Source: an uncultured Gammaproteobacteria bacterium
GTDB lineage: Bacteria > Pseudomonadota > Gammaproteobacteria > JABCZS01
Direction: 5' to 3'
Length of the DNA stretch: 64,000 nt
NCBI GenBank assembly: GCA_963848305.1
Contig: CAWKDC010000001.1
Coordinates: 22,490-86,489, forward strand
Positions within the stretch are counted from its first letter, which is position 1. Each line of letters opens with the position of its first letter. Made by a program: the position numbers and the translations under genes. A model generated the notes under the pieces. That model saw only the letters and a program-made list of their open reading frames with translations. It ran no database searches and was not told the DNA's origin. Positions 5,361-40,416 of this stretch are shown in pieces.

Positions 5361-7866
5361 ATGGGATACATTTGCATTCACGGACATTTTTACCAGCCGC
5401 CGCGCGAGAATCCCTGGCTCGAAGCCGTTGAGCTTCAGGACTCAGCGCGTCCCTATCACGATTGGAATGAACGGGTCGATGCTGAATGTTACACGCCCAA
5501 CGCCAGCGCTCGGATTCTGGACGAGGAAAAGCGCATTGTCAGCATTGTGAACAACTACGCCAAGATCAGCTTCAATTTCGGCCCTACTTTGCTTCCTGGA
5601 TGGAGTCAAACGATCCGGCCGTCTATCGCGCCGTTCTGCGACGCCGATGCCCAGAGCGCCAAGAACTTTTCCGGGCACGGTTCCGCCCTTGCCCAGGCGT
5701 ACAACCACATGATCATGCCCCTGGCGAACGAGCGCGACAAATACACGCAAGTATTCTGGGGGATTCGCGACTTTGAACACCGATTTGGACGGCGGCCGGA
5801 AGGGATGTGGCTCCCGGAGACCGCCGTGGACGTCGCCACTCTGGAGGTCCTGGCCGAGCAGGGCATCAAGTTCACCATTCTTGCCCCTAACCAGGCCCGC
5901 CGCGGAAGGAAGATCGGCGGTCGCAATTGGAAGGATCTCAGCAACAGTTCCGTTGACCCGACCATGGTTTACCGTCACCGCCTGCCCTCGGGGAAGAACA
6001 TTAACCTTTTCTTCTACGATGGTCCGATCTCCCGCGCCATAGCGTTTGAGGGCGTGCTGGACAACGGCCAGCAGTTTGCGCGAGCGGCTTCTGGGAGCCT
6101 TTTCCGAAGACACGCGGCCCTGGCCGGAACTCGTGCATATCGCCACGGATGGGGAGACCTACGGCCACCATCACAAATACGGTGAAATGGCCTTGGCCTA
6201 TGCCTTGGATTACATCGAGTCCAACGGCCTGGCCGAGCTCATCAATTACGGCCTGTATCAGGAACGGCATCCTCCGACCCACGAAGTCGAGATATTTGAC
6301 AACAGCTCCTGGAGTTGCGTTCACGGAGTCGAACGCTGGCGCAGCAACTGCGGCTGCAACTCCGGCGGACATGCGGGCTGGAACCAGGAGTGGCGCGCCC
6401 CGCTGCGCGCGGCTCTGGATTGGCTGCGCGACACGCTGGCCCCTCTTTACGAAGAGAAAGCCAAGCAGTTGCTGAAGGATCCGTGGTCGGCGCGCAATGA
6501 TTACATTGATGTCGTCCTTGACCGCTCCGCGGAGACCCGGGAGGCGTTTCTCGCCAAGCACGCCCTTCGGCAGCTTGATGACGGCCGAGAAAACGACCGT
6601 GTGGAAGCTGCTGGAGCTTCAGCGGCACGCCATGTTGATGTACACCAGTTGCGGTTGGTTCTTCGATGAATTGTCGGGAATCGAAACCGTCCAGGTGATT
6701 CAATACGCCGGCCGCGCCGCCCAACTGGCGGAGGAGCTTTTCGGCAATCCCCCGCAAAGCCTCTTCATCGAAAAGCTGAGCCAGGCCAAGAGCAATATTC
6801 CCGAGCATGGAGATGGCGGCCGCATCTACAAGAAGTTCGTCCAGCCCGCCTTTGTTGACTTGCGCAAGGTCGCTGCTCACTACGCCATCAGGTCTCTTTT
6901 TGAAGCGTACCAGCCGGACACCCAAATTTACTGTTACAAAGTGGAGCGCCAAGCCGACGCTTAACCTCGAAAAGGAGAACAGCCACGCGCAGAAGCTCGC
7001 GGGCGGGCTTGGCGAGGTTTACCTCGGAGGTCACCCAGGAGTCGGCCGTCCTGGGCTTCGCCGCAATTGAATGTGGCGATTACAACCCCACGGGCGGTGT
7101 CCTGAAGGCCACGAACCCCGAGGCTTATGAGGCCGTAAGCGCTGCACTGAAGGAGCCCTTTCTGCGGGGAGACCTGAAGGAGGCATGCCGGCTCCTGGAA
7201 CAAAATCTCGATGGCGAGCCTTATGCGCTCGCGGTGATCTTTCGTGACGAGCAAGAAAGAATCCTCAAACGGATCATCGAGACAGAGTGGGCGGACGCCG
7301 ATGCGGCTTTTGACAGCCTTTACCCCCACCTGCTGTCCACGATGCGAACGCTCGCGAGGGTGGGAGGATCCTTGATGATTCCCCGAGCTTTCTCTGCCGC
7401 TGCCGAATTTGTTTTGAATACCCGGCTCCGGCGCGCGTTGGGGAGCGACCAGTTGGATTTTGAGGGCATCCGGAGTCTCATCGGCGATGCCGAGGGTGCC
7501 AATGTGGCGCTCGACGTGCCGACCCTGGAATACACGCTCCGGACAAAGCTCGAACGGATGGCGGAGAGCTTACGAGCCGACCCTACCAATGTTGAGCTTC
7601 TCCAGGGCTTGATTCCGCCGTGGGCATGGCTCGTTCGCTGCCGCTGGAGGTGAACCTCGCGAAGATTCAGAACATTTGTTACGAGTTGCTGCAAACCACC
7701 TACAATGACTTTCAGGTAAAAGGGCGAAGAAGGAGGCAAAAACGCCAGCGCATGGATCGAGCATTTTCGTGCTCTGGCTGAAAAACTCTCCCTGCGTGTC
7801 GCGGAGGAGCCCCGTTCTTTAGAGCCTGACCTGACCGGGGCTAAAGGACAGCAGGTGCAGGGCTGA
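5361..7866 (+). CDS. glycoside hydrolase family 57 protein (about 830 aa, DUF3536-type C-terminus), with several apparent frameshifts
   Basis: N-terminus CIHGHFYQPPRENPWLE, ATDGETYGHHHKYGE; the product is pieced together from ORFs 5361.., 6046.., 6497.., 7009.. and a tail to 7866. Confidence 0.7.
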
Positions 7867-7893
7867 AGCCCGGCGCGGTCTTGGTAGGAGGCG

Positions 7894-10770
7894 ATGGCCA
7901 CACTGCGGATTCCTCTGGCGACGTACCGGCTCCAGTTCAACGCGCAGTTTCGCTTCGAGCACGCGCGGGCGCTGGTGGATTACCTTGCACCAGCTTGGGG
8001 TGACGGATATCTACTCTTCGCCTCTGCTGCAAGCGCGGCGCGGAAGTCTGCACGGCTACGACGTCACCGATCCCTCCCACATCAATAGTGAAATTGGGAG
8101 CGAGCAGGACCTCGAGGCCCTGTCGGCGAAGCTCCAGGAACATCAAATGGGCCTCCTCCTGGACATCGTCCCGAACCACATGGCCGCCGGAAGCGAGAAT
8201 CCCTGGTGGATGGATGTCCTGGAAGACGGCCCCGGCTCTGCCTACGCTTCGTTTTTTGATATCGACTGGCACCCTCCCCGCATGATGCTCCAGAACAAAG
8301 TTCTTCTGCCGATCCTCCGCCACCCTTACGCCCAAGCGCTTGAGAACCAGGAACTCAAACTGGTTTTCGACCAGGGTGGCTTTTTCATCCAGTGTTTCGA
8401 TGCCAAGCTGCCCGTCGCGCCCAAAACCTACCTTCTGGTCTTGCAGCATCGGCTGGGCGAGTTGCAGCACAAGCTGGGCCTCCGACCACCCGGCGTTTCG
8501 GGAATTGGGAGGCATCTTCGCCGCCGCGACAAACCTTCCCGAGCGCGTTGCTCTTTCCACCGAAATGGCGGGGGAAAGACGCATGCAAAGGGAGGCCCTG
8601 AAGGAAAGGCTCTGGAAGCTGTATCAAGACTCGTCCGAAGTGCGGACCTTCGTCGATGAGAACGTGCGCATCTTCAATGGCCGGAAGAGGGACCCGGCCA
8701 GCTTTATGTTGCTTGACCGTTTGCTGGCCGAGCAGGCTTATGTGCTCTCATACTGGCTCTCCGCCAATGACGAAATCAACTACCGGCGATTTTTTACCAT
8801 CAATAATTTAGTGGGAGTCCGCGTGGAAGATCCCCTGGTGTTTGAAGCCACGCACGCCGTGATCCTGCGCCTTATCGAAAGAGGATTGGTGACGGGATTG
8901 AGGATCGACCACGTGGACGGCCTCCGAGACCCTCACGGTTATCTGCGCAGACTCCAGGAGCGCGTCGGAGGCAGTGCCGGAGACGATTCTCATCCGCCGT
9001 TTTATGTCCTCGTGGAAAAGATTCTCGCCTATGGCGAAAAGCTACCTCGCGAATGGCCGATCTGCGGGGCGACCGGCTATGCCTCCCTCAATGCTCTCAA
9101 TGGGCTTTTCGTCGACCTCCGACGGGTGCAAGAAACTCCACCAGATCTACGAATCGTTTATCGGCGCCACGATCCGGTATGAGGATCTGGTGTATGAAAA
9201 AAAGAAGGAGGTGATGGAAAGCCTCCTCGCCGTGGAGATGCGTTCACTGGGCCATTACCTGGCAATCCTGGCGGAACAGGACCGGTATGCGCGCGACTCT
9301 GCCCGCGGTGACCTTGCCAACGCTCTCACCGAGACCACCGCTTGCTTTCCCGTTTACCGGAGCTATATTCGGAGCTTCTCGGTGAGCGCGGAGGAACGCC
9401 GATACATTGAGAAGGCACTCGAGTGCGCTCGACGGCGGAATCCCGCGTCTAGCTTCGCAATGCTTTGATTTTGTCGCGACGTCCTTTTGTTGCGGGAAAG
9501 AGGCCATGTACAGCCCGAGCAGCGGGAAGCCAGACTGGCTTTTATTATGCGCTGGCAGCAGTTCACCGGTCCGATCATGGCCAAAGGGCTGGAGGATTCT
9601 GCCCTTTACGTTTACTACCCCCTGAGTTCGCTGAACGAGGTCGGCGGAGCTCCCGATTCCTCGGGAGTGCCGGCCGCCGAATTTCATGTATTCTGCCGCA
9701 ACCGGCAGAAGCACGGCCACACTCTGAATGCCACCTCCACCCACGACACCAAGCGCGCCGAAGATGTGCGCGCACGAATTAACGTGCTTTCCGAAGTTCC
9801 CGAAGAGTGGGATACGGCCCTCCAAAGCTGGACACGACGCAACATGGCCGAAGAAGATCCCGGTCGAACGGGCAAAAGGTCCCCGATCCTAACGAGGAAG
9901 TACCTCGTTTACCAGACCATGCTGGGGGCTTGGCCGCTGGACAAAGGGCGACATTTCCGCCTTCCGAAAACGGCTCCAGGATTACATGGTGAAAGCGGTG
10001 CGGGAGGCGAATGGTCCACACAGATTGGAGCCGCCCCAACGTCCGCCACGAGCAGGCGCTGATCCACTTCATTAAATCCATCACTCAGCCGTCGGAAGAC
10101 AACAAGTTTTTGCCCGACTTCCTTCGCCTGCAGCGGCAAGTTGCCTACTGCGGGGCGCTCAATTCCCTGGCCCAGCTTTTGCTCAAAATCACCGATTCCA
10201 GGGGTTCCGGATTTTTACCAAGGCTCTGAGCTTTGGGACTTCCGCCTGGTTGATCCTGATAACCGGGGTCCGGTGGACTTCGAAAAGCGGGTGCGCCTGC
10301 TGGCCGAGCTCCAGCGAGCAGGAGGAACAACGCGGCCGTTTGGACCTCATCAGGGACCTCCTTGACCACTGGCAGGACGGGCGCATCAAACTCTTTGTGA
10401 CCTCGACAGCCCTCAACTTTCGCCGGGATCACGCCCAAGCTGTTCCTGAAGGGCGATTACCAGCCATTGCACGGCGACGGGGCCCAAAAAAGAGAAGGTC
10501 TTTGCGTTTATGAGGCGTACCGAGGACGCCTGGGCGGTCACCGCCGTGCCAAGATTCGTCACGAAGCTGGCTTCCCGCCGGGCAGCCTCCCACGGGAGAA
10601 GGCGTATGGTCAGCCGGTACGGTGCTTCTACCTAAGGGGGCGCCGACGGATTGGGTCAATGTGCTGACCAGGCGAAAGCCTGAAGGTTCGCACTTCAAAG
10701 CAGGGAGCGCCCCTTGCCGCTGGCGGAGGTATTTGGTAAGTTTCCTGTGGCACTGCTTACAAGCGGGTAG
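7894..10770 (+). CDS. treY: malto-oligosyltrehalose synthase (TreY), with many apparent frameshifts
   Basis: Start [24 protein letters not shown] (TreY hallmark), [45 protein letters not shown]-terminus ...FPVALLTSG; the ORF fragments sit in at least seven frames. Confidence 0.75.
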
Positions 10771-10894
10771 TGCAGCGCGGCATTAGGCCGCAACGCTGAG
10801 TCGTGGCATGGCCATCCCGGCCATGGCGTTAACACGGGAAAGATGCCCGTGCCACGTCTGGTGCTCTTGCACCGCTGCGCTGCGTGGCCCAACT

Positions 10895-12561
10895 ATGACC
10901 AACCCCGAACCGAGCACCTACAAGCCTCCGGACGATCCGCTTTGGTACAAGGATGCGGTCTTCTATGAGGTCCATGTGCGCGCCTTTTGCGACAGCGATG
11001 GCGACGGGACGGGAGACTTCCGCGGGTTCGCGCAAAAGCTGGATTATCTGGAGGACTTAGGCGTCAACACCATTTGGCTTCTTCCCTTTTACCCCTCGCC
11101 GCTCAAGGACGACGGGTACGATATCTCCGACTATACGAACGTTCACCCTTCCTATGGCACCCTGGACGACTTCCAATTGGTTTTGGACCAGGCGCATCGG
11201 CGGGGAATGAGAGTCCTCACTGAACTGGTCATGAATCACACCTCGGACCAGCATCCGTGGTTTCAGGAGGCAAGGCAATCCAAGAACAACCCGCGCCGCG
11301 ATTGGTACGTGTGGAGCGACACTCCCGATCCCTACAGGAAGGCCCGTATCATCTTTATCGACACCGAACTCTCCAACTGGGCCTGGGACCCGGTTTCCAA
11401 GTCGTATTACTGGCACCGCTTCTTCAGCCACCAGCCGGATCTTGAATTATGACAATCCCGCCGTCCGGGAAGAGATGTGGAACCTCATGAAGTTCTGGCT
11501 GGATAAGGGCGTCGACGGATTCCGTTTGGACGCCGTTCCCTATCTGGTCGAGCGGGAAAACACCAACTGCGAAAACCTGCCCGAGACCCACCAGGTTCTT
11601 AAGGACCTTCGAAGCCGGCTGGCCCAGAATTACCCCAACCGGTTTCTGCTGGCCGAAGCCAACCAGTGGCCACAGGACGCGATTGCCTATTTCGGCACCG
11701 GCGACGAGTGCCACATGGCCTTTCACTTTCCCCTCATGCCGCGGATGTTCATGGCCATCCGGCTCGAAGACCGCAAGCCGATCATTGATATCATGCAGAG
11801 CACCCCGGCCATTCCCGAGTCATGCCAGTGGGGCTTGTTTCTACGCAACCACGATGAGCTGACGCTGGAAATGGTGACCGACGACGAGCGGGATTATTTG
11901 TATGACGAATACGCCAAGGACAAGAGCGCCCGGCTCAACCTCGGAATCCGGCGGCGCCTGGCGCCTTTGCTCGAAAACGACCGCCGACGCATCGAACTGA
12001 TGAACGGCATGTTGATGTCGCTGCCGGGAACACCCATCATCTATTACGGAGATGAAATCGGGATGGGAGACAACATTTACCTGGGGGACCGCAACGGTGT
12101 CCGCACGCCCATGCAATGGAATGCCGGCTGGAATGCCGGGTTTTCCGCTGCCGACCCGGAACAGCTCTATTTCCCGCTGCTGTCAAATCCGCTGTACGGC
12201 TATCAAAGCGATCAACGTGGACGCCCAGAAAAGGTCCCCCCACTCTCTGCTGTCCTGGATGAAACAGATCATTCGCGTGCGGAAATCCACCCAGGCGTTC
12301 GGGCGGGGGACGCTGGAATTTCTCGACTCGCCGAATCACCGGGTTCTGGCTTACGTCCGGGAAATGGGAAAGGATAAAATATTGGTCGTCAATAATCTAT
12401 CGAATTCCGCGCAGGCGGCAGAACTCGATCTTCGCCGGTTCAAGGGGGCAATCCCCATCGAGATGTTCGGCGGCAATCCCTTTCCTCGGGTGGGCGATCC
12501 TCCCTATCTTTTGACCTTAGGGCCGTATCAATTTTTTTGGTTCCGGCTGCGAAGGTTTTAG
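10895..12561 (+). CDS. treS: trehalose synthase / maltose alpha-D-glucosyltransferase (TreS, GH13), with two apparent frameshifts
   Basis: [92 protein letters not shown]. Confidence 0.8.
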
Positions 12562-12564
12562 GAA

Positions 12565-12680
12565 TTTTCGATTGTCGATTGCCGATTGTCGACTGATGAT
12601 TGCCATCAAGTCCGCGAAGCGGGCTGATCGCCATCGGCATTCGATAAATCGGCAATCGAAAATCGGCAATCGACAATGAT
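12565..12680. repeat. long imperfect palindrome with CGATTG/CAATCG sub-repeats between treS and the next gene
   Basis: ttttcgattgtcgattgccgattgtcgac ... gtcgacaatcg-type arms (ggcaatcgaaaatcggcaatcgacaatgat) around a GC-rich centre. Confidence 0.5.
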
Positions 12681-14669: not shown

Positions 14670-14720
14670 CCCTCGTCCCTTGCTACAGAACCAAGCGAAA
14701 CTGGGGTGGGGGTGCCGTTT

Positions 14721-14798
14721 GACGTAGAGGCGGCTTTAGGCCGCCATTTGCCGTGGTTTTACGGTCGCGACATGGCGGCGTAAAGCCGCCTCTACGTC
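14721..14798. repeat. REPIN-like inverted REP pair
   Basis: gacgtagaggcggctttaggccgcc ... 28-bp spacer ... ggcggcgtaaagccgcctctacgtc; it lies between convergent genes. Confidence 0.6.
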
Positions 14799-14813: not shown

Positions 14814-16220
14814 CTAACAGCGGACAATCTTGTCACGATGGTGCGTCACTCGGGCAGTGGCGTTCCGCGTGTCCACCACAAGCGGGCTCTCGGTGACGAC
14901 CAAGTCATAATCCACATTGCTGTGGTCGGTCACGATCAACGCGCAATCGTGCGTGCGAAGCGCTTCCGCGGTCAGCGGGATGGATTCGCAGACCGAAGTC
15001 GTATTTCCGCATCTTCCCCAGGCGCGGAACAAAGGGGTCGTGGTAGTCAACGTGAGCTCCCTGCGCGCCGAGCAATTCAATGATCTTCAATGCGGGCGAT
15101 TCCCGGACGTCATCGATATCCTTCTTATACGCCGCTCCCAGCACCAGCACGCGCGAGCCGTGCAAGGTTTTTCCGCGCTCGCCCAGCGCCGCCGCCACAT
15201 GATTCACGACGTGATGGGGCATGGCCGTATTGATTTCGCCCGCCAACTCAATAAAGCGCGTGGGAAATTCATACTCGCGCGCTTTCCAGGTCAGATAAAA
15301 CGGATCGACGGGAATGCAATGCCCCCCAAGACCCGGCCCCGGATAAAAAGCATTGAACCCGAAAGGCTTGGTTTTCGCCGCGTCGATGACCTCCCAGATA
15401 TCGATGCCCATGCGCATGCACAGAAGCTTGAGCTCATTCACCAGGGCGATGTTCACGGAACGGTAGATGTTCTCCAGAAGCTTCGTCATCTCCGCGGTCC
15501 GGGATGAACTGACCAGTGGGTGCGTTCGAAGATACTCTGATAGAGCGCCTGCGCGGCCAAAGCGCTGGAGGCGTTCACGCCCCCGACGATCTTGGGAACC
15601 TGGCGAGTTTGGAATTGCTTGTTTCCAGGATCCTCGCGCTCCGGGGAAAAGGCCAGGAAGAAGTCCGGTTCCGCCCCCTCGGACGCCGTCACGGTGACGC
15701 CGTCGGTGGTGTAGGGGGAAACGGGACATTTCAGCCCGCCTTCTCCAGAATGGGAAGCATGTCTTCGTCGGTGGTTCCCGGATAGGTCGTACTCTCCAGC
15801 ACGATCAATTGGCCGGGCTGCAAATGCTCGCTCACCAGCTTTGGCGGTATTCAGGACAAAGGAAAGGTCGGGTTCGCGGTGTTTGTCGAGAGGGGTGGGA
15901 ACGCAGATGATGATGGCGTCCATTTCTTTGAGCCGGGTGAAATCGTCGGTGGCCTGAAAACGCTTCTTTTCGACTTCCTCGGCAATGCTGGCAGCAGAGA
16001 TATGATGAATGTAGCTCTCTCCCCGCCGGAGCTTTTCAATCTTGCCGGGGTCGATGTCAAACCCCGTGGTCTGCGAACCCGGCGTGGCGCACAAAAGCCC
16101 AAGGGGCAGCCCCACATAACCCAATCCGATCACTCCCACGCGAGCCGTTCGATCCTGAAGCTTCGCAGACAGGCCAGACACTCGCGGTCCCGGAGTAAAT
16201 GGCCCTTTTCCAGTTCCCAT
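14814..16220 (-). CDS. nucleotide-sugar dehydrogenase (UDP-GlcNAc/ManNAc 6-dehydrogenase family), with two or three frameshifts
   Basis: [17 protein letters not shown] Rossmann motif, [65 protein letters not shown]. Confidence 0.7.
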
Positions 16221-16323: not shown

Positions 16324-17107
16324 CTACCAATCACGCGCGAAGCCGGCCGTCCATCCGCCATCCACCACCAGCACGGTGGCGGTGACGTAGCTGGCGTCAT
16401 CGGATGCCAGAAAAAGCGCGGCCTTGGCAATTTCTTCCGGCGTTCCCGGCCGGCCCAGCGCTACGTGAGACAACAAGCTGTCGCCAGTTTCTTCCCTTCC
16501 GGGCTGTAGAACAGCGACTTCGTTCCTTCCACAAGGATCGAGCCGGGGGCGATAGCGTTCACGCGAATCCCATATTGCCCGACCTCCAGGGCGTGGGAGC
16601 GGGTAAAGTTTATCACCCCGGCTTTGCCGCCGCGAAGGCCGATTGCACGCGAACTGGTACGACGCCAAACGCCGAACTGATGTTGATGATGGTTCCCTTG
16701 CGGCGTTTCACCATGCGGGCCGAAACAGCCCGCGAACAATAGAAGAGCCCGTCCAGGTCCACGCGGATGATCCGGTGCCAATCGTCATCCAGGAACTCGT
16801 GAATAGGGTGGCGCTCTTTGCCCAGGTTGATTCCTGCATTGTTCACCAGGATATCGATTGGCCCGAGGTCCGCTTCCACGGCCGCGACCATCGCGTTCAC
16901 CACATCCACGTCACCGACATCTCCCGGGTAGAATTTTGCCTTCCCGCCGCGCTTTTGAATCTCCGCAACGGTCTGCTCGCCGGTGGGTTTAATGTCATTC
17001 ACGGCAATCACCGCGCCGTTTTCCGAGAAAGCGTAGGCCATGGCCTGCCCAATACCCTGCCCGGAGCCGGTAATCAACGCGACGCGTCCCGCTAAGTCCA
17101 CTTTCAT
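16324..17107 (-). CDS. short-chain dehydrogenase/reductase (FabG-like), with two frameshifts
   Basis: [59 protein letters not shown]; a GGAGGA RBS precedes the ATG at 17107. Confidence 0.7.
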
Positions 17108-17283
17108 AGATCTTCCTCCGAGGATATTAACCGTTGGCCTCGTTTCTGGTAAAGGAGCGGCAAGCGAGAAATGCGCCGTTCCCATCAAGCTTACGGCCGG
17201 TAAAAGGAGGTTCACTCCCCGGCACGAAATCTACTCTGCCTTAAGCCGCAAAGTCAAGTACAGGCGAGTTCACCTCGCCATAT

Positions 17284-17308
17284 GGCGGCGTAGAGCCGCC
17301 TCTACGTC
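17284..17308. repeat. REP unit (ggcggcgtagagccgcctctacgtc) that served as the insertion target of the MITE-like element
   Basis: Same family as 14774-14798; its 3' 10 bp cctctacgtc is duplicated on the far side of the element. Confidence 0.55.
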
Positions 17309-17514
17309 CAACACAGTTCACTTAGCTGTCATCAGGGATTAAACAAATCTAATTACGTGCGAAGCACCTTGGAGTGCGAGTGGCAGCAGCCACCGCCTTC
17401 CGCCCGAGATTCATACGGGACTCGCACGAATGAAAGGCGGTGGCTGCTGCCACTCGCACTCCAAGGTGCTTCGCACGAGCCCATGTCAAAATGCGCGCTA
17501 AGTGAACAGTGTTG
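17309..17514. mobile_element. 206-bp MITE-like non-autonomous element, copy 1: 17-bp terminal inverted repeats, an internal 42-bp perfect-stem hairpin, a 10-bp target site duplication
   Basis: TIR caacacagttcacttagc / gctaagtgaacagtgttg; TSD cctctacgtc at 17299-17308 and 17515-17524; stem arms 17356-17397 and 17436-17477 are perfectly complementary; a near-identical copy lies at 39011-39216. Confidence 0.7.
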
Positions 17515-17579
17515 CCTCTACGTCAGAAGTTAAGCGTAGCTTCACTTCGATTGAGTTTTTGGGCGCTTCAGAGTAAGTT

Positions 17580-19797
17580 ATGGCTGCCTTGGCGAATTGC
17601 AGCAGGGGGTCAGAACAGGGAGGCAGCATGATCCAGCATCCTATTTGCGCAACCAGCACCGCGGACAATTGCATACGTCAAGTCTTGGGGAATTGGCGAT
17701 GTGAACGCGCCTGCCTGAGCTTCTTTTCTCGCCTCGCACTAGTGGTCTTCCTGGGGGCCGCCATGATGCCATTTCCGGGCGGAGCGTTCGCGCAGGAAGG
17801 AGCTCCGGTGGCGCGGTGGTCATTCGACAATGCTACCGGCCCGGCGGTGCGCGACACGGCGAGCGGAACGGAGGACAAGGTTGGAGGTTTCTACCAATAC
17901 GTTGCGGGGGTTTCTGGAAATGGCTTGCGGTTTGATGGATACACCACCAGTGTCGTCCGCAAGGCGGAAAATGCCCCCAGATTGCACGGTTCATTTTCGG
18001 TGGAAGCCTGGATCGCCCTTGATACGTACCCATGGAACTGGATTCCCGTGGTTGACCAGGAGAAGGATCAGCAGGCAGGTTACTTTTTCGGCGTGGACGC
18101 GCTTGGGCACGTTGGTCTGCAGGTGGATATTGACGGGATTTGGTATTCCGTGACCTCGACCGACGCAAATTCCGCTGAAGAAGTGGGCTCAGATTACGGG
18201 GACCTTCGAGGAGAACCGTGGACTGACCCTATACCTTGACGGAAGAGAAGTGGGACGTCTAGCTGCGCGCGGTGCGATGCTGCCCGCCGATATGCAGGAC
18301 TTGGTGATCGGCAGGGTGCGCGAACCGTTGCCTCCCTTCCCTTCTTTCGCCATTAACCCGTGGCATCCGGTCTGGTACTCGCTCGATGGCATTTTGGATG
18401 AGGTGGCGATTTATGACCGGAGTTTGAGCGGAGAAGAGGTTCAGAGGACCTACGCCTCTGCTCACGCCCCCGCCGGAGAAGTTATCCCGTGGCCGGTGCT
18501 TCCCTCCGGCCCTCCCGGAGCGGGTCCTTTCGGCGCCTACTATTACACCCTCAAGTACGAGGACACCTGGGACCGTCTGCGGCGCATCGGGCCTGATTCC
18601 GACGTGGTGGTCCGCTTCGACGACTCCCCGATTCGCCTGGTCTTCTGGCAGGGGACCGGCTACATCCCCACCTGGGTCACCGAGAACGGCACGTGGTATA
18701 CGGACGAATTCCTTGAAGGGTACGCTTCCGAATGCCCGGACCACGGGGATTGCGAGCCCATGTCCGACAAGCAGGACAGGTATTCGCACGTCAACATTGT
18801 GGAGAGCAGCGACGCGCGCGTGGTGGTTCACTGGCGTTATGCGCTGGCGGAGGTGGAACATTACCTGGGCGCCGAGCCCGATCCCTTGACGGGATGGTTT
18901 GATTGGGCCGACGAATATTGGACGGTTTACCCGGACGGGGTGGCCATTCGCAAGCAGGTCTTGCATCCCACCGACCAGACCAAGGGGTTCGAATGGCAGG
19001 AAACCATTGTCATCAACCCGCCCGGCCGCCGCCCGGACGATGATATCAATCTGGACGCCCTTACCATTGGCAATATGAAAGGAGAGACGGCCACTTACAC
19101 CTGGCTGCCAAAGGCTTCAGGAGTGTACGGGGATCTGCACCAGCCTAAATCCATTGATAAACCTGAGAATCCAAATATCCAGTTGGTGAATCTGAAATCA
19201 GCCTGGAAGCCTTTTGAAATCGTTTCTCCCACCCATGCCAGATTCAAAGTCTTCAATGTTTCACAGTCCTATTTCTCGTTTGGTTGCTGGAACCATTGGC
19301 CGATCACGCAAATTGCTTCCAGCGCCAGATATCTGCGTGGCGCCCGACCGGGCGTCGCACACCTCGCTTTCCCACATCTATTGGGACACCTATGCAACCA
19401 CCGAAAGTTCGATCACCAAGCTTCTGATGGATGGCTTGACCACGAAATCGGCCGCGGAACTGCTCCCGCTGGCGAAATCGTGGTTGTCGCCACCCCCGGT
19501 TGAACGTCGAAGGCGAGGTCTTTCAAAGCGAGGGCTACGACCCGGCGCAGCGGGCCTTTGTGGTGGTCCGGAAGAATGGCGGGAAAGCCGGCGGCATTGG
19601 CGTTGACTTTGCAGGCCAGCGATTCCTCACCGGTTTTGAATCCGGCCATCGTGATCAAGAACTGGGGAGATGGCGGCGGCGCAACTGAAGATCAACGGGA
19701 AACCGGTAAACTGGGGGAAGGATTTCCGCCGCGGGTACGTTCAGGAATCTCGACGGCACTGACTTGGTCGTGTGGATCCGGCGGGAGTCAGTAATGC
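17580..19797 (+). CDS. secreted LamG/concanavalin-like domain protein (large, frameshifted)
   Basis: Signal-like LALVVFLGAAMMPFPGGAFAQEG, GNGLRFDG...SFSVEAWIALD LamG-type signature; continues through ORFs 18250.., 19500.., 19558.. Confidence 0.5.
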
Positions 19798-23903: not shown

Positions 23904-24326
23904 AAAGTTTCCCAATGTCCGCGCAGCGTCTTCTCCTCTTCGTTCACCATATCACTCAGATTCAGCATCTTTGCCCACAGGACTTGAGATACGTTAACTC
24001 GTTGGGCATGTCAATGTCTCCCAATAATTCCGTGGTGGACTTGTCAAATCTCCCCGCTTAGGTAAAAGTCTTCTGTTATTGCGGAACCACTTTGGGCAAA
24101 TTGTCCCTGCTAGGCGACCTTTTCGTCCTCACGCTTTGACGCTTCAGGATATTTTACGGACATCATGACCGAAAACATACAATATCTAGCGTATCTTTAG
24201 ATTTCCTACGCAATCTAGAGTATGTCACATAATAATCATGCGATTTAAGGTAGTACCTGAGTACTCTAGACTTCAATATGTGATACCGGTAATTTAGTCG
24301 GGCGAGGACTGAGGAGTAATATTTTT

Positions 24327-25670
24327 ATGAAGACCGGAAATCACAAATTTGACCGCGGGACTGCATTAATACTCGCCACGGCCTGCATTGCCATGGCCAT
24401 TTTAGCCACGTCTTGTGGTGGTGGGGCCGGCAGCAGCGCCACCGCTGATACAGCCTCCACAACAGGACTCTCGATAAGTCCCCCTACCGTGACCTTCGGC
24501 AGCCAAGCTGTTGGGACGGCAAGTGCGGCCCAGACCAACACCGTCACGAATGCGGGCAACTCGGCCGTGGGCATTTCCAGCATTGCGCTCGGAGGGACAA
24601 ATCCCAGCGACTTTGCACAATCCACTAACTGCGGCTCCACCGTTGCGGCGGGTGCCAGTTGCACAATCACCGTGACCTTCCAACCGACGGCGACGGGAAC
24701 TCGCAGCGCCGAAGTAACTGTCACCGACAATGTCTCCCACAGCCCCCATAAGGTCAGCGTCAGCGGAACGGGTATGGCGTCTACTGTCACCCTATCTCCC
24801 ACCAGCCTCACTTTCGCCAGCCAAACCGTCGGCGCCGCCAGCGCGGCCCAGACCATCACGCTGAGCAACTCGGGCAACGCGGCCTTAAGTGTGACCAGCA
24901 TCGCGGTCTCCGGCGCCAACGCCAGTGACTTTACAGAAACCAATAATTGCGGATCAAGCGTGGCGGCTGGAGCCAATTGCACGATCAGCGTTACCTTCAA
25001 GCCGGCCGCGGCAGGAGCTCGCACCGCCGCCATCTCCGTTACGGACAACGCTACCGGCGGCCCGCAGAGCGCGGTCCTTTCGGGCACCGGGGGGAGCACT
25101 ACCGCCGCGGCCAGCGTTTCGCCCACCAGCCTGTCTTTTGGGAACGAAGCGGTGGACATGGTCAGCACCTCGCAAGTCGTTACCCTGAGCAACACAGGCA
25201 GCGCGGGCTTGGGCATCTCGAGCATCGCCTTTACGGGTGCTGATGCCGCCGACTTCACGGAGGTTGACACTTGCAGTCCCGCGGTGGCCGCAGGGAGCAC
25301 TTGCACGATCGCAATTTTATTTACACCCGCCGCCAGCGGAACGCGCACGGCTACCTTGAGCATCGCCGACAATGCCACCGGCAGCCCGCAGTCCGTGTCG
25401 CTTTCGGGCTCGGGAACGCACGACGTAATGCTGTCTTGGACCGCCAGTTCGACTCCTGGGGTCATGGGCTATAACGTCTACCGGGGGACGACCTCCGGTG
25501 GAGAGAGTGCGGCACCGCTGAATTCCGCGCCGGTTTGCAATACCACATTTGCGGACGCGAATGTCACGGCAGGAGCGACGTACTACTATCACGTGACGGC
25601 CATAGCTGCGAATGATGTTACGCAGAGCTCGGCCTCGAACGAAACGACTGCAACCGTCCCCACACCTTAA
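24327..25670 (+). CDS. lipoprotein with three choice-of-anchor-D/ASH-like about 100-aa repeats and a C-terminal fibronectin-III-like domain
   Basis: Lipobox ILATSCGGG; repeats LSPTSLTF.SQ.VG.ASAAQT.TLSNSGNAAL...DF...NCGSSVAAGA.CTI.VTF.P...G.R.A..SVTDNA; LSWTASSTPGVMGYNVYRG...YYYHVTA. Confidence 0.7.
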   Translation: MKTGNHKFDRGTALILATACIAMAILATSCGGGAGSSATADTASTTGLSISPPTVTFGSQAVGTASAAQTNTVTNAGNSAVGISSIALGGTNPSDFAQSTNCGSTVAAGASCTITVTFQPTATGTRSAEVTVTDNVSHSPHKVSVSGTGMASTVTLSPTSLTFASQTVGAASAAQTITLSNSGNAALSVTSIAVSGANASDFTETNNCGSSVAAGANCTISVTFKPAAAGARTAAISVTDNATGGPQSAVLSGTGGSTTAAASVSPTSLSFGNEAVDMVSTSQVVTLSNTGSAGLGISSIAFTGADAADFTEVDTCSPAVAAGSTCTIAILFTPAASGTRTATLSIADNATGSPQSVSLSGSGTHDVMLSWTASSTPGVMGYNVYRGTTSGGESAAPLNSAPVCNTTFADANVTAGATYYYHVTAIAANDVTQSSASNETTATVPTP

Positions 25671-28157: not shown

Positions 28158-28398
28158 ACCCGCCTTCTCCGAAAAAAAATTCCGGCAGAAATTGGACTAC
28201 ATGCACAAGAACCCGGTGACGCGCGGCCTGGTGATCTCTCCCGGTGATTGGCCGTGGTCAAGCTGGAGGTTCTACTATTCACAGGATGCATCGATTCTCC
28301 GCATGGACCGGATGCGTTGAGTCCAACTTTCGAGAAGTCCCTTCGGGAGATCGCAGACTTCAAAGAGCCGGAGTCTGCCAGCCCCCGTGTCTTGCAGC
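28158..28398 (+). mobile_element. partial copy (about 240 bp, 3' end only) of the IS200/RAYT element found at 30.8-31.47 kb
   Basis: About 90% identical to 31227-31466, including the A8 tract, the DWPWSSWRFYY coding segment and the subterminal hairpin gcagact...agtctgc. Confidence 0.75.
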
Positions 28399-29091: not shown

Positions 29092-30879
29092 CTACTGCTG
29101 CTCCCAGGGGTCATGATAGGGCAATGGGTCAACAAAGATCTTGCCGGGATTCAGACGAGGGTACGTACCCATGATCAGATTCGATGTGCCAGCATCGTTG
29201 AAACCTCGGCCACTCGTAAAGATAGTGTAGCCGCCAGCCGAAAGACCGGACAGGCCAAGCCCTTGTGCCACCCAAGCGGACGTTTCATACCCGCGATACT
29301 CGAACGAGAAGTCCGGCAGCGGGGCCGTCGAACTCCTTGGATCGAGATTGTCCATCACGTGGGTTCCCTCGTGGCCAGCATTTATCGCCATGATGGTTTC
29401 GTTTGGATTCTTGCTCATGTCGAACGTAACTGCTGAGCCGACCGTTGCAGCAGCACCTAGCCCGCGCAGGTCGCCGGTCGTGACGGTCACTCCGTTATCA
29501 TCGCCTGCCTTGCCATAGGTCTTCAGAACTGCATCGAGCCTCGCACGCTCCTCGCTGCCCTTTCCGAAGCTGTTTCTCGCCGCTTTTATGTCGTCCAACG
29601 AATCCTTAAACTCTTTCTTGAAAGCCTTGAAATCAGCGTTACACTGTTTGTCAGATTTCTCGCAAGGGTTCTTGAAATCGTAGAGCCCGGTGGGATCGAC
29701 GCGAGTGGTGGGATTATTCCGGACATAAGCATACATATTCCAGGTCTGGGGGTCGCTGGGGTCGGCAGCGGCCAGGCCTGCCGGGTCGGGGGTGAGCCAG
29801 CGGCCGGCCAGGTCGTCATAGACCCGGTGCGGGGCCAATTTAAAATCGCCATCCCCCTCCTGAAACGCCGCCCACTCCCACTCCCATAAATTACCGGCCG
29901 TTTGCCACAACTGACCCCAGGGGTACCACAGTAAGTCCTCGGTCCAGTTCCCCAGATGGTTGGTGTCCTGGGTTGCGGAACCGAGAAAGTTGGGGTGCTG
30001 AAGATAGGTCTCGTTGTTGTCACGGGAATATGCTGCGATTTTCCGCCCCCCCGCTCGTACCTGGTCCACCCACAAGCTGCTGCCGTCGGCGTTCCCCAGC
30101 CAATCACCATTGGGAGCGAACAATGCGGACATGTTGGTCCACGGCACGGCATAGTAGACCTCTTGGCCGAAGGCATTATAAACTGCGCTGGAATTGGTTT
30201 CCCGCCCCTCGCCATCCCAGGAGAAGCTATTCGTGCCGTCACTGGTCAGATTCCCCGCGGCGTCGTAGCTGAAGCCGTCAATGCGATTCGGGTAATTGTT
30301 GTAAGTCAATACCGGGCAAGGGCCGTTCGTAGACCCGTTCATCAAGCAGGTCATGTTGCCGTAGGCGTCATAGCCAAAGGCGAGGTTATACGTGCTGTTG
30401 CCGCTCGCCTGCGCGCAAGCCAGGCGATTCACGCCGTCATAGACATACAAGGCCGAGTGGCTCATCGTGCTGTTCACCGCGTCCGTGAAAGTATAACCAA
30501 TCACGTCGCCGTTGTTGCCGCTCCCGGACGCGGACACGGGGCAGCCGGGCGGCGTACTGCCGCCGGGCAAAGAGTAATTATACCCCAGTGTATAGTACGC
30601 TCCGGGGTTGCCGCTGGTGCCCAACTGAATCTGGGTCGGCTGCATCCGGTTATTGTAGGAGTAGGTTTCCTGGCTGTTCGTGCACCCGGAACCCGCGCAG
30701 CCGTTGGTGAGACCGCTTAGCGCCCCCCAGGGAGTGTAGGCCGGCTGGCGCTCAGACACCCGTTCTTTGGTGTCTGCGATTCCCGAAGGGACGTTCTCTT
30801 CCGGCCCCGCACCGTCGAGAGTATACTCTTCTGCGCCATGCCCTTCTACCACCGCGTTTACAGTCCCGGTGAACTGCAA
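29092..30879 (-). CDS. RHS/YD-repeat protein C-terminal fragment with a variable C-terminal toxin domain carrying an HExxH motif (N-terminus lost at the IS junction)
   Basis: YD repeats (YVYDGVNRL, FGYDAYGNMT, FSYDAAGNLTSDG); RHS core end RWLTPDPAGL...NMYAYVRNNPTTRVDPTGL; about 210-aa tail with AINAGHEGTHVMD. Confidence 0.75.
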   Translation of the reverse strand: MQFTGTVNAVVEGHGAEEYTLDGAGPEENVPSGIADTKERVSERQPAYTPWGALSGLTNGCAGSGCTNSQETYSYNNRMQPTQIQLGTSGNPGAYYTLGYNYSLPGGSTPPGCPVSASGSGNNGDVIGYTFTDAVNSTMSHSALYVYDGVNRLACAQASGNSTYNLAFGYDAYGNMTCLMNGSTNGPCPVLTYNNYPNRIDGFSYDAAGNLTSDGTNSFSWDGEGRETNSSAVYNAFGQEVYYAVPWTNMSALFAPNGDWLGNADGSSLWVDQVRAGGRKIAAYSRDNNETYLQHPNFLGSATQDTNHLGNWTEDLLWYPWGQLWQTAGNLWEWEWAAFQEGDGDFKLAPHRVYDDLAGRWLTPDPAGLAAADPSDPQTWNMYAYVRNNPTTRVDPTGLYDFKNPCEKSDKQCNADFKAFKKEFKDSLDDIKAARNSFGKGSEERARLDAVLKTYGKAGDDNGVTVTTGDLRGLGAAATVGSAVTFDMSKNPNETIMAINAGHEGTHVMDNLDPRSSTAPLPDFSFEYRGYETSAWVAQGLGLSGLSAGGYTIFTSGRGFNDAGTSNLIMGTYPRLNPGKIFVDPLPYHDPWEQQ

Positions 30880-31466
30880 TTCATCACCACCAGCACCTAT
30901 CGCCGCACGCCCCTTTTCCTCTCGGATCGCTTTCGGCGCTGCTTTGTCCAGAGGCTGGAGGAGGTGCGGCAGGAATTACATTTCCTGCTCGTCGGCTGGG
31001 TTCTGATGCCCGAGCATTTTCATATGCTGATCAAGCCCGAGCCCGCCGAAACCACTCCCCTGATTATGAAGGGGCTCAAGGAGGAATCGGCCAAGCGCAT
31101 CATCAGAACACTTCGGGAAAACCTTCGGTATCCTTGGTGCCGGAAGACGCTCGCCAGGCTGCGGCTGCCCTCCACGGTTCACGATGAATCACACTACCGC
31201 CTCTGGCAGCGCCGCTTTTACCCCTTCAATGTCTTCTCCGAAAAAAAATTCCAGCAGAAATTGGACTACATGCACAACAACCCGGTGACGCGCGGGCTGG
31301 TGAGTTCCCCCGGCGACTGGCCGTGGTCAAGCTGGAGGTTCTACTATTTGCAGGATGCGTCAATTCTCCGCATGGATCGGATGCGCTGAGCTCAACTTAC
31401 CAGAAGTCCCTTCGGGAGATCGCAGACTCCAAAGAGCCGAAGTCTGCGCCAGCCCCGTGTCTGGAA
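30800..31466 (+). mobile_element. IS200/IS605-like element carrying a REP-associated tyrosine transposase (left boundary approximate)
   Basis: RAYT gene plus a subterminal hairpin cgcagactccaaagagccgaagtctgcg; the 3' 240 bp is duplicated at 28158-28398. Confidence 0.65.
30838..31389 (+). CDS. REP-associated tyrosine transposase (RAYT, IS200-like Y1 HuH transposase)
   Basis: HuH motif MPEHFHMLIKP; YRLWQRRFY; DYMHNNPVTRGLVSSPGDWPWSSWRFY, which matches the RAYT signature. Confidence 0.8.
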   Translation: MPFYHRVYSPGELQFITTSTYRRTPLFLSDRFRRCFVQRLEEVRQELHFLLVGWVLMPEHFHMLIKPEPAETTPLIMKGLKEESAKRIIRTLRENLRYPWCRKTLARLRLPSTVHDESHYRLWQRRFYPFNVFSEKKFQQKLDYMHNNPVTRGLVSSPGDWPWSSWRFYYLQDASILRMDRMR

Positions 31467-38912: not shown

Positions 38913-39010
38913 AGTCCATGAGGGGCGCGGCCGACAGCTATCTGGGTGGAACTTCCAGCCACAAGTCGATCTGCGCCTCTGGGAGGCACCGAGAAAACCG
39001 GGCTAGGCGG

Positions 39011-39216
39011 CAAAACTGTTCACCTAGCTGTCGTCAGGGATTAAACGAATCTAGTTACGTGCGAAGCACCTTGGAGTGCGTGTGGCAGCAGCCACCGCCT
39101 TTCATTCGTGCGAGTTCCGTATGAATCTCGGGCGGAAGGCGGTGGCTGCTGCCACACGCACTCCAAGGTGCTTCGCACGAGCCCATGTCAAAATGCGCGC
39201 TAAGTGAAAAGTGTTG
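39011..39216. mobile_element. MITE-like element copy 2 (206 bp), inserted at the stop codon of the acyltransferase gene
   Basis: Co-linear with 17309-17514 apart from a few substitutions and an inverted 38-nt loop; TSD gggctaggcgg / gggctagccgg at 39000-39010 and 39217-39227. Confidence 0.7.
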
Positions 39217-39219
39217 GGG

Positions 39220-40416
39220 CTAGCCGGGACGGGAAAGAACGTAGGTGAATCGTTCCTTGAGTCTTAGGAACGGCAGCTCCAGGAATTGATATGAGGCTAT
39301 GGAAAAGGCAACCGTAAGCGCGAGACCCAGCAAGGCATACACAGGGTAAAGCCCCGCATGAAGCGTCCCAAGGACTTTGCGCGCCAGGAGCAAAGACAAA
39401 TAGTGATAGACGTAGAGCCCATAAGAGATTTTGCCCAAATACACGAGTCGAAACCAACCGACCATCCGCATGCGTTCCACGGGCAGACCGAGGGCAGAAA
39501 GAAACAGCAAAGTACATGCGGCCGCTACCAAAGGGAAACCTAACATTCCACGCAGCAGGGTGGGGGCAGCGCCAGGTGCCGTGCCACCAAGGAGTTCGGC
39601 TGCCCCCATCAACCCCCCGAGCCCAACAATAACAAAAATCAAACGCACACCGATGGAAAGTGAGGGGATTTTTCCCCGAAGACCCAGGGAGATGAGAATG
39701 CCCACCGCAATGCCATCGAGCCTGGTAAAAGTGCTGTACGAAAGCATCTGCATGGTTGTGTGCCCAGCCAGCAGAATAAACCGCGTCCCCGAAGCCAGCA
39801 CCAGCAGCCCGACCGCCACTGCGGCCAGGCGCTTAGGCGAAGACCTCCGTACCACCCGGGGCCAAAGCAAATAGAATTGCTCCTCCACCGAGACGCTCCA
39901 TAGCGGCAAGGCAACCGAAGCAGGAAGTCCATGCAGCGCACTGATCCAGTTGCCACTCAGGAGAAGAAAGGCCAGCACGTATTGCCAGGTAAAAATCTGC
40001 CCAGCCACAAACTCGTGGAGCGTCCAGGCAATCCCGATAAAGAAGAAATAAAGCGGCCAAATTCGCAGGATGCGGCGCACGTAGAAGGCTTTCACATCAA
40101 GAAACCCACGCTTCGCCTTTTCTCTCACCAGCAACTCCGTAATAAGGTAAGAGCTCAGCACAAAAAACAGGTCAACACCGAAGTTCCCGGCCCCCAGAGC
40201 ATCATTGCCCAGGCGAATCAAGCTCGATACCAGCGGCATTACCGTGTAACGCAGCAGTTCCGGTGGAATAGAACGGGGCTTGAGATGATAAAAGAAAACG
40301 CCAAGAAACGCGAAGAAGCGAAGCACATCCAGCTCCGGCCGATAAAAGCGCTCTCCGGTTCCAATTTTCGACCCGGCGATCTCATTCGAATTCCGGATCA
40401 AGCCCGGTGGGATCAT
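39220..40416 (-). CDS. acyltransferase family 3 (polysaccharide O-acyltransferase) membrane protein
   Basis: LDVLRFFAFLGVFFYH..., 10 or more TM helices. Confidence 0.7.
   Translation of the reverse strand: MIPPGLIRNSNEIAGSKIGTGERFYRPELDVLRFFAFLGVFFYHLKPRSIPPELLRYTVMPLVSSLIRLGNDALGAGNFGVDLFFVLSSYLITELLVREKAKRGFLDVKAFYVRRILRIWPLYFFFIGIAWTLHEFVAGQIFTWQYVLAFLLLSGNWISALHGLPASVALPLWSVSVEEQFYLLWPRVVRRSSPKRLAAVAVGLLVLASGTRFILLAGHTTMQMLSYSTFTRLDGIAVGILISLGLRGKIPSLSIGVRLIFVIVGLGGLMGAAELLGGTAPGAAPTLLRGMLGFPLVAAACTLLFLSALGLPVERMRMVGWFRLVYLGKISYGLYVYHYLSLLLARKVLGTLHAGLYPVYALLGLALTVAFSIASYQFLELPFLRLKERFTYVLSRPG

Follow-up and report, generated by a model that had tools for sequence, protein, structure and literature searches.

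Bacterial MITEs (miniature transposable elements with inverted repeats), such as Correia/NEMIS of Neisseria, RUP, ERIC, and Nezha, are the closest known systems to a 206-bp repeat that occurs twice in the window, namely the whole stretch of 64,000 nucleotides analyzed here (contig CAWKDC010000001.1, positions 22,490 to 86,489). Flip and flop palindromes, in which an asymmetric loop between perfect arms is found in both orientations, are known from the terminal repeats of parvoviruses, and spacer inversion between long inverted repeats is also known. Repetitive extragenic palindromic sequences (REPs) and their doublets (REPINs), which occur together with REP-associated tyrosine transposases (RAYTs), are based on a palindromic unit whose inverted doublets form a long hairpin, and they are scattered between genes in tens of copies per genome and build mosaics with other repeats (Bertels and Rainey 2011; PMC3733652). 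In Acidobacteria, Y1 transposase genes with double-palindromic terminal inverted repeats (TIRs), termed TIRtrons or TIRYT genes, have been described (Di Nocera et al. 2013, PMC3733652). The insertion sequences of the IS4 family make target duplications of about 10 bp, which corresponds to one helix turn, and mostly have 5′-NA ends (De Palmenaer et al. 2008, PMC2266710).

The 206-bp element is very probably a non-autonomous MITE with TIRs and target duplications. Compared to the MITEs listed above, it has a perfect 44-bp palindrome core made from two independently distributed REP-like units, its loop is inverted between copies, the internal base of its hairpin is better conserved across related families than the TIR, and no parent insertion sequence is known for it. 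With the flip/flop palindromes, it shares perfect arms and an asymmetric loop present in both orientations, whereas its palindrome is internal to a chromosomal element and is not the end of a replicon.

The two copies were located by reading of the region and by pairwise alignment at 17309-17514 and 39011-39216. These coordinates are identical to those of the initial annotation, which had also described the copies as co-linear; this second part has to be withdrawn because the central 122 bp of copy 2 are the reverse complement of those of copy 1 (98% identity). Both copies end in TIRs with the consensus CAACAC(A/T)GTTCAC(T/C)TAGC, which are 18 bp long, one more than the 17 bp first proposed. 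In copy 1, the left TIR CAACACAGTTCACTTAGC (17309-17326, plus strand) and the right TIR GCTAAGTGAACAGTGTTG (17497-17514, minus strand) are complementary at 17 of the 18 positions, and the TIRs of copy 2 lie at 39011-39028 and 39199-39216. A search of the 64-kb window for the TIR with up to three mismatches returned four sites, all belonging to the two copies, against a chance expectation of 0.06. The target duplications of 10-11 bp claimed in the initial annotation were also found directly outside these ends. Copy 1 is bracketed by CCTCTACGTC at 17299-17308 and 17515-17524 (10/10 match), and copy 2 by GGGCTAGGCGG at 39000-39010 and GGGCTAGCCGG at 39217-39227 (10/11 match).

The settings of the two insertions are different, as the neighbors of copy 1 are divergent genes and those of copy 2 are convergent genes. 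Copy 1 adjoins the GTAG end of a GTAG-type REP unit on the minus strand (17275-17308), so that its left duplication is at the same time the end of this host unit, and the previous assignment of a REP unit as the recipient is thereby borne out. Relatives of the unit are present at 341-374, 14717-14750, and 14765-14798; intact ones, e.g., 14772-14798, terminate in CCTCTACGTC and are then followed by unrelated sequence, in which the second CCTCTACGTC is absent. Copy 2 is placed, as noted before, on the stop codon of an Acyl_transf_3 gene (39220-40416): the right duplication includes the TAG stop (39220-39222, minus strand), and the gene retains its stop codon because the target site was duplicated. 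The left duplication of this copy is non-coding and free to drift. Four separate assemblies, from related strains, contain copy 2, and the duplicate outside the gene is mutated differently in three related assemblies, whereas the stop-bearing duplicate is constant. This three-way drift is the expected residue of an originally perfect duplication. The REP units around copy 1 belong to a separate GTAG-tagged family (GACGTAGAGGCGGC...) with members in the window at 341-374, 14717-14798, and 17275-17308, and two units at 14721-14798 are arranged as an inverted doublet that resembles a REPIN hairpin, with 96% complementarity between its 27-nt arms.

Three more full copies with the same ends and their own duplications were obtained outside the window. 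A metagenome scan with the right-flank 20-mer returned the sole locus L069, and the loci L079 and L080 were obtained with a protein query, namely copy 1 translated in its frame without stops, which targets spurious open reading frames (ORFs) across other copies. The duplications are GGGTTAAATG for the copy in L069 (1344-1550; 10/10), GGGCGCGTTG and GGGCTCGTCG for that in L079 (2894-3099; 8/10), and ACCCCAGGTA and GACCTAGGTA for that in L080 (3601-3807; 7/10). In total, five independent insertions share one pair of ends, and each has a flanking 10-mer of its own; the full copies measure 206-207 bp, they lie in unrelated contexts in different samples (ENA and JGI), and their similarity ends exactly at the TIRs. 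In addition to the five full copies, partial copies were found in L007 and L016. The latter is diverged, and it has retained the left TIR but no recognizable target duplication. The copy in L007 (553-697, contig CAVYWI010000011.1) is truncated with a core that is 98% identical, and it lies in a bin labelled Alphaproteobacteria, owing to either a binning error or horizontal transfer.

The element has no coding capacity. Six-frame translations across the copies gave stops or non-conserved frames, in agreement with the initial annotation, which had called the element non-autonomous and without an internal transposase; a conserved small ORF starting in the flank between the hairpin and the right TIR was considered and rejected, as its frame differs between families. 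The MITE interpretation, which had been made dependent on further copies with the same boundaries, is therefore supported by five insertions that share their ends, have different duplications, and do not conserve any frame. Downstream of the MITE copies, heptamer tandem repeats of the CCGATGA/ACCGATG type were observed in L069 (1575-1625) and L079 (3200-3250), and a CGATTG-rich inverted repeat at 12571-12677 of the window is similar to them.

The interior of the element is organized around a long hairpin. In copy 1, the left TIR is followed by a ‘B’ flank (17327-17355, plus strand), which is conserved in copy 2, L069, L079, and L080, by the left hairpin arm (17356-17399, plus strand), a 34-nt loop (17400-17433), the inverted right arm (17434-17477, minus strand), and an ‘A’ flank AGCCCATGTCAAAATGCGC (17478-17496, plus strand), which is identical in copy 2. 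The corresponding arms of copy 2 occupy 39058-39101 and 39136-39179, with the loop at 39102-39135. The two arms of copy 1 are 100% complementary; the perfect hairpin of the initial annotation thus stands, with a stem of 44 bp rather than 42 bp. An in-silico fold of the element gave −85 kcal/mol as DNA (z = −16). The arm 20-mer GCGAAGCACCTTGGAGTGCG has four occurrences in the window against 0.00 expected, and this number together with the z value of the fold excludes chance.

The hairpin arm proved to be a repeat unit in its own right. A genome scan with the arm 20-mer returned 68 loci, about five of which resemble chance or coding matches. Almost all of the remaining loci lie in Acidobacteriota/Terriglobia bins and a few in Opitutia and Lentisphaeria bins; the unit recurs at more than 60 loci, with at least 20 in the bin MFD03726.bin.2.19 and at least 11 in MFD03726.bin.1.125 (hereafter bin.2.19 and bin.1.125). 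In most loci, the similarity to the window is confined to the arm's outer 22 bp, and the remainder (inner arm, loop, and flanks) is family-specific. The unit of about 44 nt begins with (C)GTGCGAAGCAC and comprises a mini-hairpin GTGC-GAA-GCAC, a near-invariant linker CTTGGAGTGCG, a second small hairpin, and a terminal CGCCTT, without a GTAG or CGTC tag. In the left arm of copy 1, these parts are the mini-hairpin GTGCGAAGCAC at 17357-17367, the linker at 17368-17378, and the second hairpin GTGGCAGCAGCCAC at 17380-17393, followed by CGCCTT. The mini-hairpin contains GCGAAGC, a DNA mini-hairpin known for its unusual stability. Its positions 2 and 10 covary (T-A or C-G; Fisher p = 1e-5, a value that is not a strict probability as the arms are related). 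The second hairpin also covaries, with the stem variants GGCGGC/GCCGCC, GTGGC/GCCAC, CGGTAGC/GCTACCG, CGGGAGC/GCTCCCG, CGGCAGC/GCTGCCG, CGACAA/TTGTCG, and others: the inner 20 nt form a perfect stem of at least 5 bp in 67 of the 79 distinct arms, compared to 7% of shuffles, with at least eight different stem sequences. These arm statistics were computed by script, and MAFFT left the 3′ halves of the second hairpin unaligned across variants.

Three arrangements identify the single arm as the unit. The two arms in bin.1.125 carry GTGCCAAAGGCAC and GTGC-TTC-GCAC, respectively, so that each mini-hairpin is intact and the pairing between the arms is broken; in the Opitutia locus L067, two units lie inverted without being complementary to one another, and each nevertheless has the architecture of the unit; and in the Lentisphaeria locus L015, two units are directly oriented. 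Inverted doublets are thus one of the forms in which the unit is arranged, as in REPs and REPINs. Moreover, the unit agrees with REPs and REPINs in its length, which falls within 20-45 nt, in containing an imperfect palindrome, and in forming inverted doublets that fold into a long hairpin, as well as in its intergenic scatter, tens of copies per genome, and mosaics with other repeats. It differs in lacking the GTAG/CGTC tag, in having two stem-loops round a conserved linker, in the absence of an identified cognate RAYT flanked by the unit, and in the location of the doublet inside a duplication-making element.

The flanks of the hairpin families, designated ‘A’ and ‘B’, have diverged and are still recognizably related, and the ‘A’ flank core GCATTTTGAC is common to the sub-terminal region of the bin.1.125 family. 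This family of about 370 nt has its own outer inverted repeats and a flanking repeat, which is 12-bp perfect in L006 (CCGGACAGGCGG) and matches at 8 of 12 positions in L025, indicating that insertion with target duplication is not peculiar to the window family. Other palindromic repeats, for example GTGCCACGGCCATCTTGGCCGTG and CCCCGATGCATCGGGG, cluster beside hairpins in mosaics similar to bacterial interspersed mosaic elements; these were observed in L030, L045, L062, and the bin.1.125 copies (e.g., L006 7372-7440). In L057 (about 5790-7734), a group II intron with the 5′ end GTGCGCCTGATG and a frameshifted reverse-transcriptase ORF containing a YADD motif lies within the right arm of a hairpin element.

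The loop of the palindrome occurs in both orientations. Each element was oriented by its flanks, and the loops were compared in both directions. The 34-nt loop of copy 1, designated ‘flip’ relative to the flanks, is the reverse complement of the ‘flop’ loop of copy 2 with one mismatch; a plain alignment shows the loops as unrelated because the 122-bp core is inverted between the copies. Within the window type, copy 1 and L079 have one orientation, and copy 2, L069, L007, and L080 have the other (2 versus 4). The corresponding numbers are 2 versus 8 copies in bin.1.125, at least 1 versus 5 in bin.2.19, and 1 versus 2 in a long-loop type. Loop inversion is therefore a general property of the palindrome, found in four sub-families.

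The two arms also change together. A both-arm substitution between the two window copies was already recognized in the initial annotation; it is located at 17379/17454 (39081/39156 in copy 2) and not at 17384/17449, and its description as compensatory is better replaced by concerted evolution of a DNA palindrome than kept as a sign of selection for RNA pairing. Copy 1 (A/T) and L079 (GTGG/CCAC) acquired such substitutions independently, and the change in L079 disrupts the mini-hairpin and preserves the pairing between the arms. Furthermore, stem mismatches in flank-oriented elements are divided into about five G·T and five A·C. Collectively, the loop inversion, the independent both-arm changes, and the even division of mismatches point to a DNA-level process, not to selection on one transcribed RNA strand.

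The window itself encodes a Y1_Tnp protein (30838-31389, plus strand) with the HuH motif HFH and the tyrosine motif YMHNNP, whose homologues are called REP-associated tyrosine transposases by some database sources. Inverted repeats of 48 nt, double-palindromic and of the form CAGAC..GTCTG-CGAT-TCCCGAAGGGA, flank the gene at 30750-30797 and 31402-31449, giving a TIRtron arrangement at 30750-31449, and its orthologue in bin.1.125 (L074) has the same kind of flanking repeat, with covariation. The Y1 repeats and the hairpin arms have in common a 4-5-bp stem with a GAA or AAA triloop, which in the window repeats is a 4-bp stem with a GAA triloop, and in bin.1.125 both show the same asymmetry, the AAA-loop variant being found at one side and TTC at the opposite one. 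Despite the shared double-palindromic units and triloop stem, the hairpin core has another sequence and a reversed hairpin order, and it is not a gene-less TIRtron. On the same grounds, the Y1 gene of the window and its bin.1.125 orthologue were rejected as the partner of the element; a partial Y1 end in L031 was also compared and differs again, and none of the 68 loci showed a Y1 gene with arm units at its flanks.

Two further observations were made on these Y1 repeats. The last ~52 codons of the window gene are duplicated together with the right repeat 3 kb upstream (28162-28378) at 91% identity. In L075 (about 7760-9740), a reverse-transcriptase gene (8160-9596, PF00078) follows a Y1 right repeat, and the repeat recurs beyond it (L074 5680-5750). 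The presence of this repeat both before and after the reverse-transcriptase gene suggests that such introns target hairpin repeats.

Given this resemblance, the whole element could be regarded as a REPIN-type repeat moved by a HuH/Y1 (RAYT/TIRYT) transposase, with the arms as its substrates and the outer repeats and duplications as incidental. The arm does resemble a Y1 substrate in its two small stem-loops, its almost invariant single-stranded linker, and its covariation, and the REPIN-like inverted doublets, the Y1_Tnp gene in the window with its triloop stem, the common AAA/TTC asymmetry in bin.1.125, and the TIRtrons described from Acidobacteria are in line with such an enzyme. However, in all five full copies (5/5), duplications of about 10 bp directly adjoin the outer ends of the 18-bp TIRs, and IS200/IS605-type Y1 transposition makes no target duplication; it therefore cannot explain the outer scars. 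With the different sequence and opposite hairpin order of the Y1 repeats in both the window and L074, the lack of an arm-flanked Y1 gene in the 68 loci, and an arm unit without a GTAG or CGTC tag also standing against it, this explanation is unlikely, and the Y1 enzyme is a candidate for the origin of the core unit only. In a related but somewhat less doubtful scenario, which still has a low probability, the 44-nt arm would be the single-stranded DNA substrate of a HuH/Y1 (RAYT/TIRYT-like) enzyme, and the 206-bp element would be a two-layer chimera. A REPIN-like doublet may have been captured by a duplication-making MITE of the DDE type and may spread with it, and the loop flip and arm homogenization may be by-products of hairpin processing. 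If true, this would be a second, directly demonstrable route of REPIN spread.

The remaining explanations do not involve a Y1 enzyme. A functional structured RNA spread by selection, such as a small RNA, an mRNA-stabilizing or RNase III hairpin, or a bidirectional terminator, could account for the very stable fold, the location of copy 2 between convergent genes, the position of many family members just past the 3′ ends of genes (an informal observation), and the both-arm changes that preserve the stems. The search of the window with Rfam in gathering mode passes only a tRNA, with Acido-1 and Acido-Lenti-1 among the families not reached at this threshold, and the E-value mode gives generic microRNA-like hairpins far below it. 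In addition, neither copy contains a T-tract terminator or an internal promoter-like site, copy 1 lies between divergent genes, the variable loop orientation leaves no strand-specific loop sequence, the roughly equal numbers of G·T and A·C mismatches give no wobble signature of one transcribed strand, and perfect 44-bp arms are typical of DNA palindromes. The structured RNA or terminator role envisaged in the initial annotation thus did not find support, and we consider it very unlikely. The loop orientations found in four sub-families and the highly conserved inverted repeats at the hairpin base could also be reconciled with an inverton, in which the loop would serve as a phase-variable switch turned by a site-specific recombinase. 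This is highly improbable, since the invertible segment is only 20-56 nt without a promoter-like site, no recombinase gene recurs beside the elements, and in all four assemblies the orthologous copy 2 is oriented alike, the orientations differing between copies and not at one locus. Finally, only two copies in the window and two assemblies (L072 and L073) that stop inside the element might be taken as signs of a local segmental duplication or a palindrome assembly artefact; against five insertions in unrelated contexts and different samples and the recovery of copy 2 in four assemblies, the probability of this explanation is negligible.

For the non-autonomous MITE preferred here, an IS4-type DDE enzyme may be the most likely mobilizer, which is proposed tentatively from the ~10-bp duplications and the 5′-CA termini. 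The duplications of 10-11 bp, with possibly 12 bp in the relatives from bin.1.125, and the ends CAACAC... agree with the duplication length of about one helix turn and the 5′-CA dinucleotide of IS4-family insertion sequences; the difference is that no DDE/YREK transposase carrying the TIRs of the element was found. An IS4-like gene beside a broken hairpin in L063 was compared as a possible partner, and its ends do not match. All-against-all ORF clustering over the 68 loci revealed no recurring transposase, with only spurious repeat-spanning ORFs and common large families.

Several points weigh against the MITE interpretation. The partner transposase with matching TIRs anticipated in the initial annotation did not appear: searches of the window, of the retrieved loci, of viral contigs (no hits in scans with the arm 20-mer and the TIR), and of plasmids (no match by distant blastn) turned up no autonomous element with such ends. 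One complete DDE_Tnp_1 (IS4-type) element was inspected in L075 (gene at 10307-12196), where ‘CAACAC’ occurs near the end, but the true inverted repeat CTTTCGCACTTC is unrelated. Across the wider family, conservation is strongest in the internal 22 bp at the base of the hairpin and not in the TIRs, an unusual pattern if the element had arisen from an insertion sequence simply by deletion. The known full copies are five only, and no precise empty site was recovered. For copy 1, the intergenic regions between the genes for the short-chain dehydrogenase and the LamG-domain protein in relatives (80-84% protein identity) are without the element and too diverged to align. A present/absent pair is available for a related hairpin element of about 200 bp, which is found in L003 (3941-4143) and lacking in L049 (1668-1681), orthologous Acidobacteriota loci that are about 78-82% identical; its site lies among GAGGCAGGGG repeats, so that the length of the duplication is ambiguous.

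The following mechanism could be proposed for the 206-207-bp element, which is attributed to uncultured Terriglobia (Acidobacteriota). A transposase supplied in trans would bind the 18-bp TIRs (5′-CAACACWGTTCACTTAGC) and cut the target with a stagger of about one helical turn, which would give duplications of 10 bp and sometimes 11 bp. The 122-bp palindromic core consists of two inverted 44-nt REP-like units, i.e., 44-bp arms separated by a 34-nt loop, and each unit is an independent module that also occurs with other flanks, at other spacings, and even in direct orientation. The inverted arms would be kept identical by gene conversion, leading to both-arm substitutions, and recombination between the arms or template switching would invert the loop and thereby generate the ‘flip’ and ‘flop’ copies.

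Two other observations concern the remainder of the window. Near copy 1, each of three adjoining genes (14905-16220, 16324-17215, and 17580-19503) is broken into two frames, owing to either indel errors of long-read assembly or pseudogenes; their products are UDP-glucose dehydrogenase-like, a short-chain dehydrogenase, and a protein with a LamG domain. A 270-nt direct repeat at 24479-25066 with 70% identity and 318-nt spacing lies within a large ORF (24270-25667) and is probably a repeated protein domain.

The element is a new MITE family with an invertible REPIN-like core, which is a doublet of a phylum-wide REP-like unit. Neither Rfam nor the searchable literature, in which the motif was searched for as well, yielded a description of the arm unit. 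Acidobacteriota are a dominant and mostly uncultured soil phylum, and its repeats are barely described. The element breaks short-read assemblies, as in L072 and L073, which end within it, and it occupies gene ends and promoter regions, where effects on the genes are possible. Moreover, it offers a clean example of insertion, recognizable by the TIRs and by a duplicated target of one helix turn, and the REP/REPIN-like doublet lies within an element bearing the classical scars of transposition, which bears on how REP-like repeats are disseminated. Through the loop inversion and both-arm substitutions, a long perfect palindrome is available as a natural example of concerted evolution and of the inversion of a spacer.

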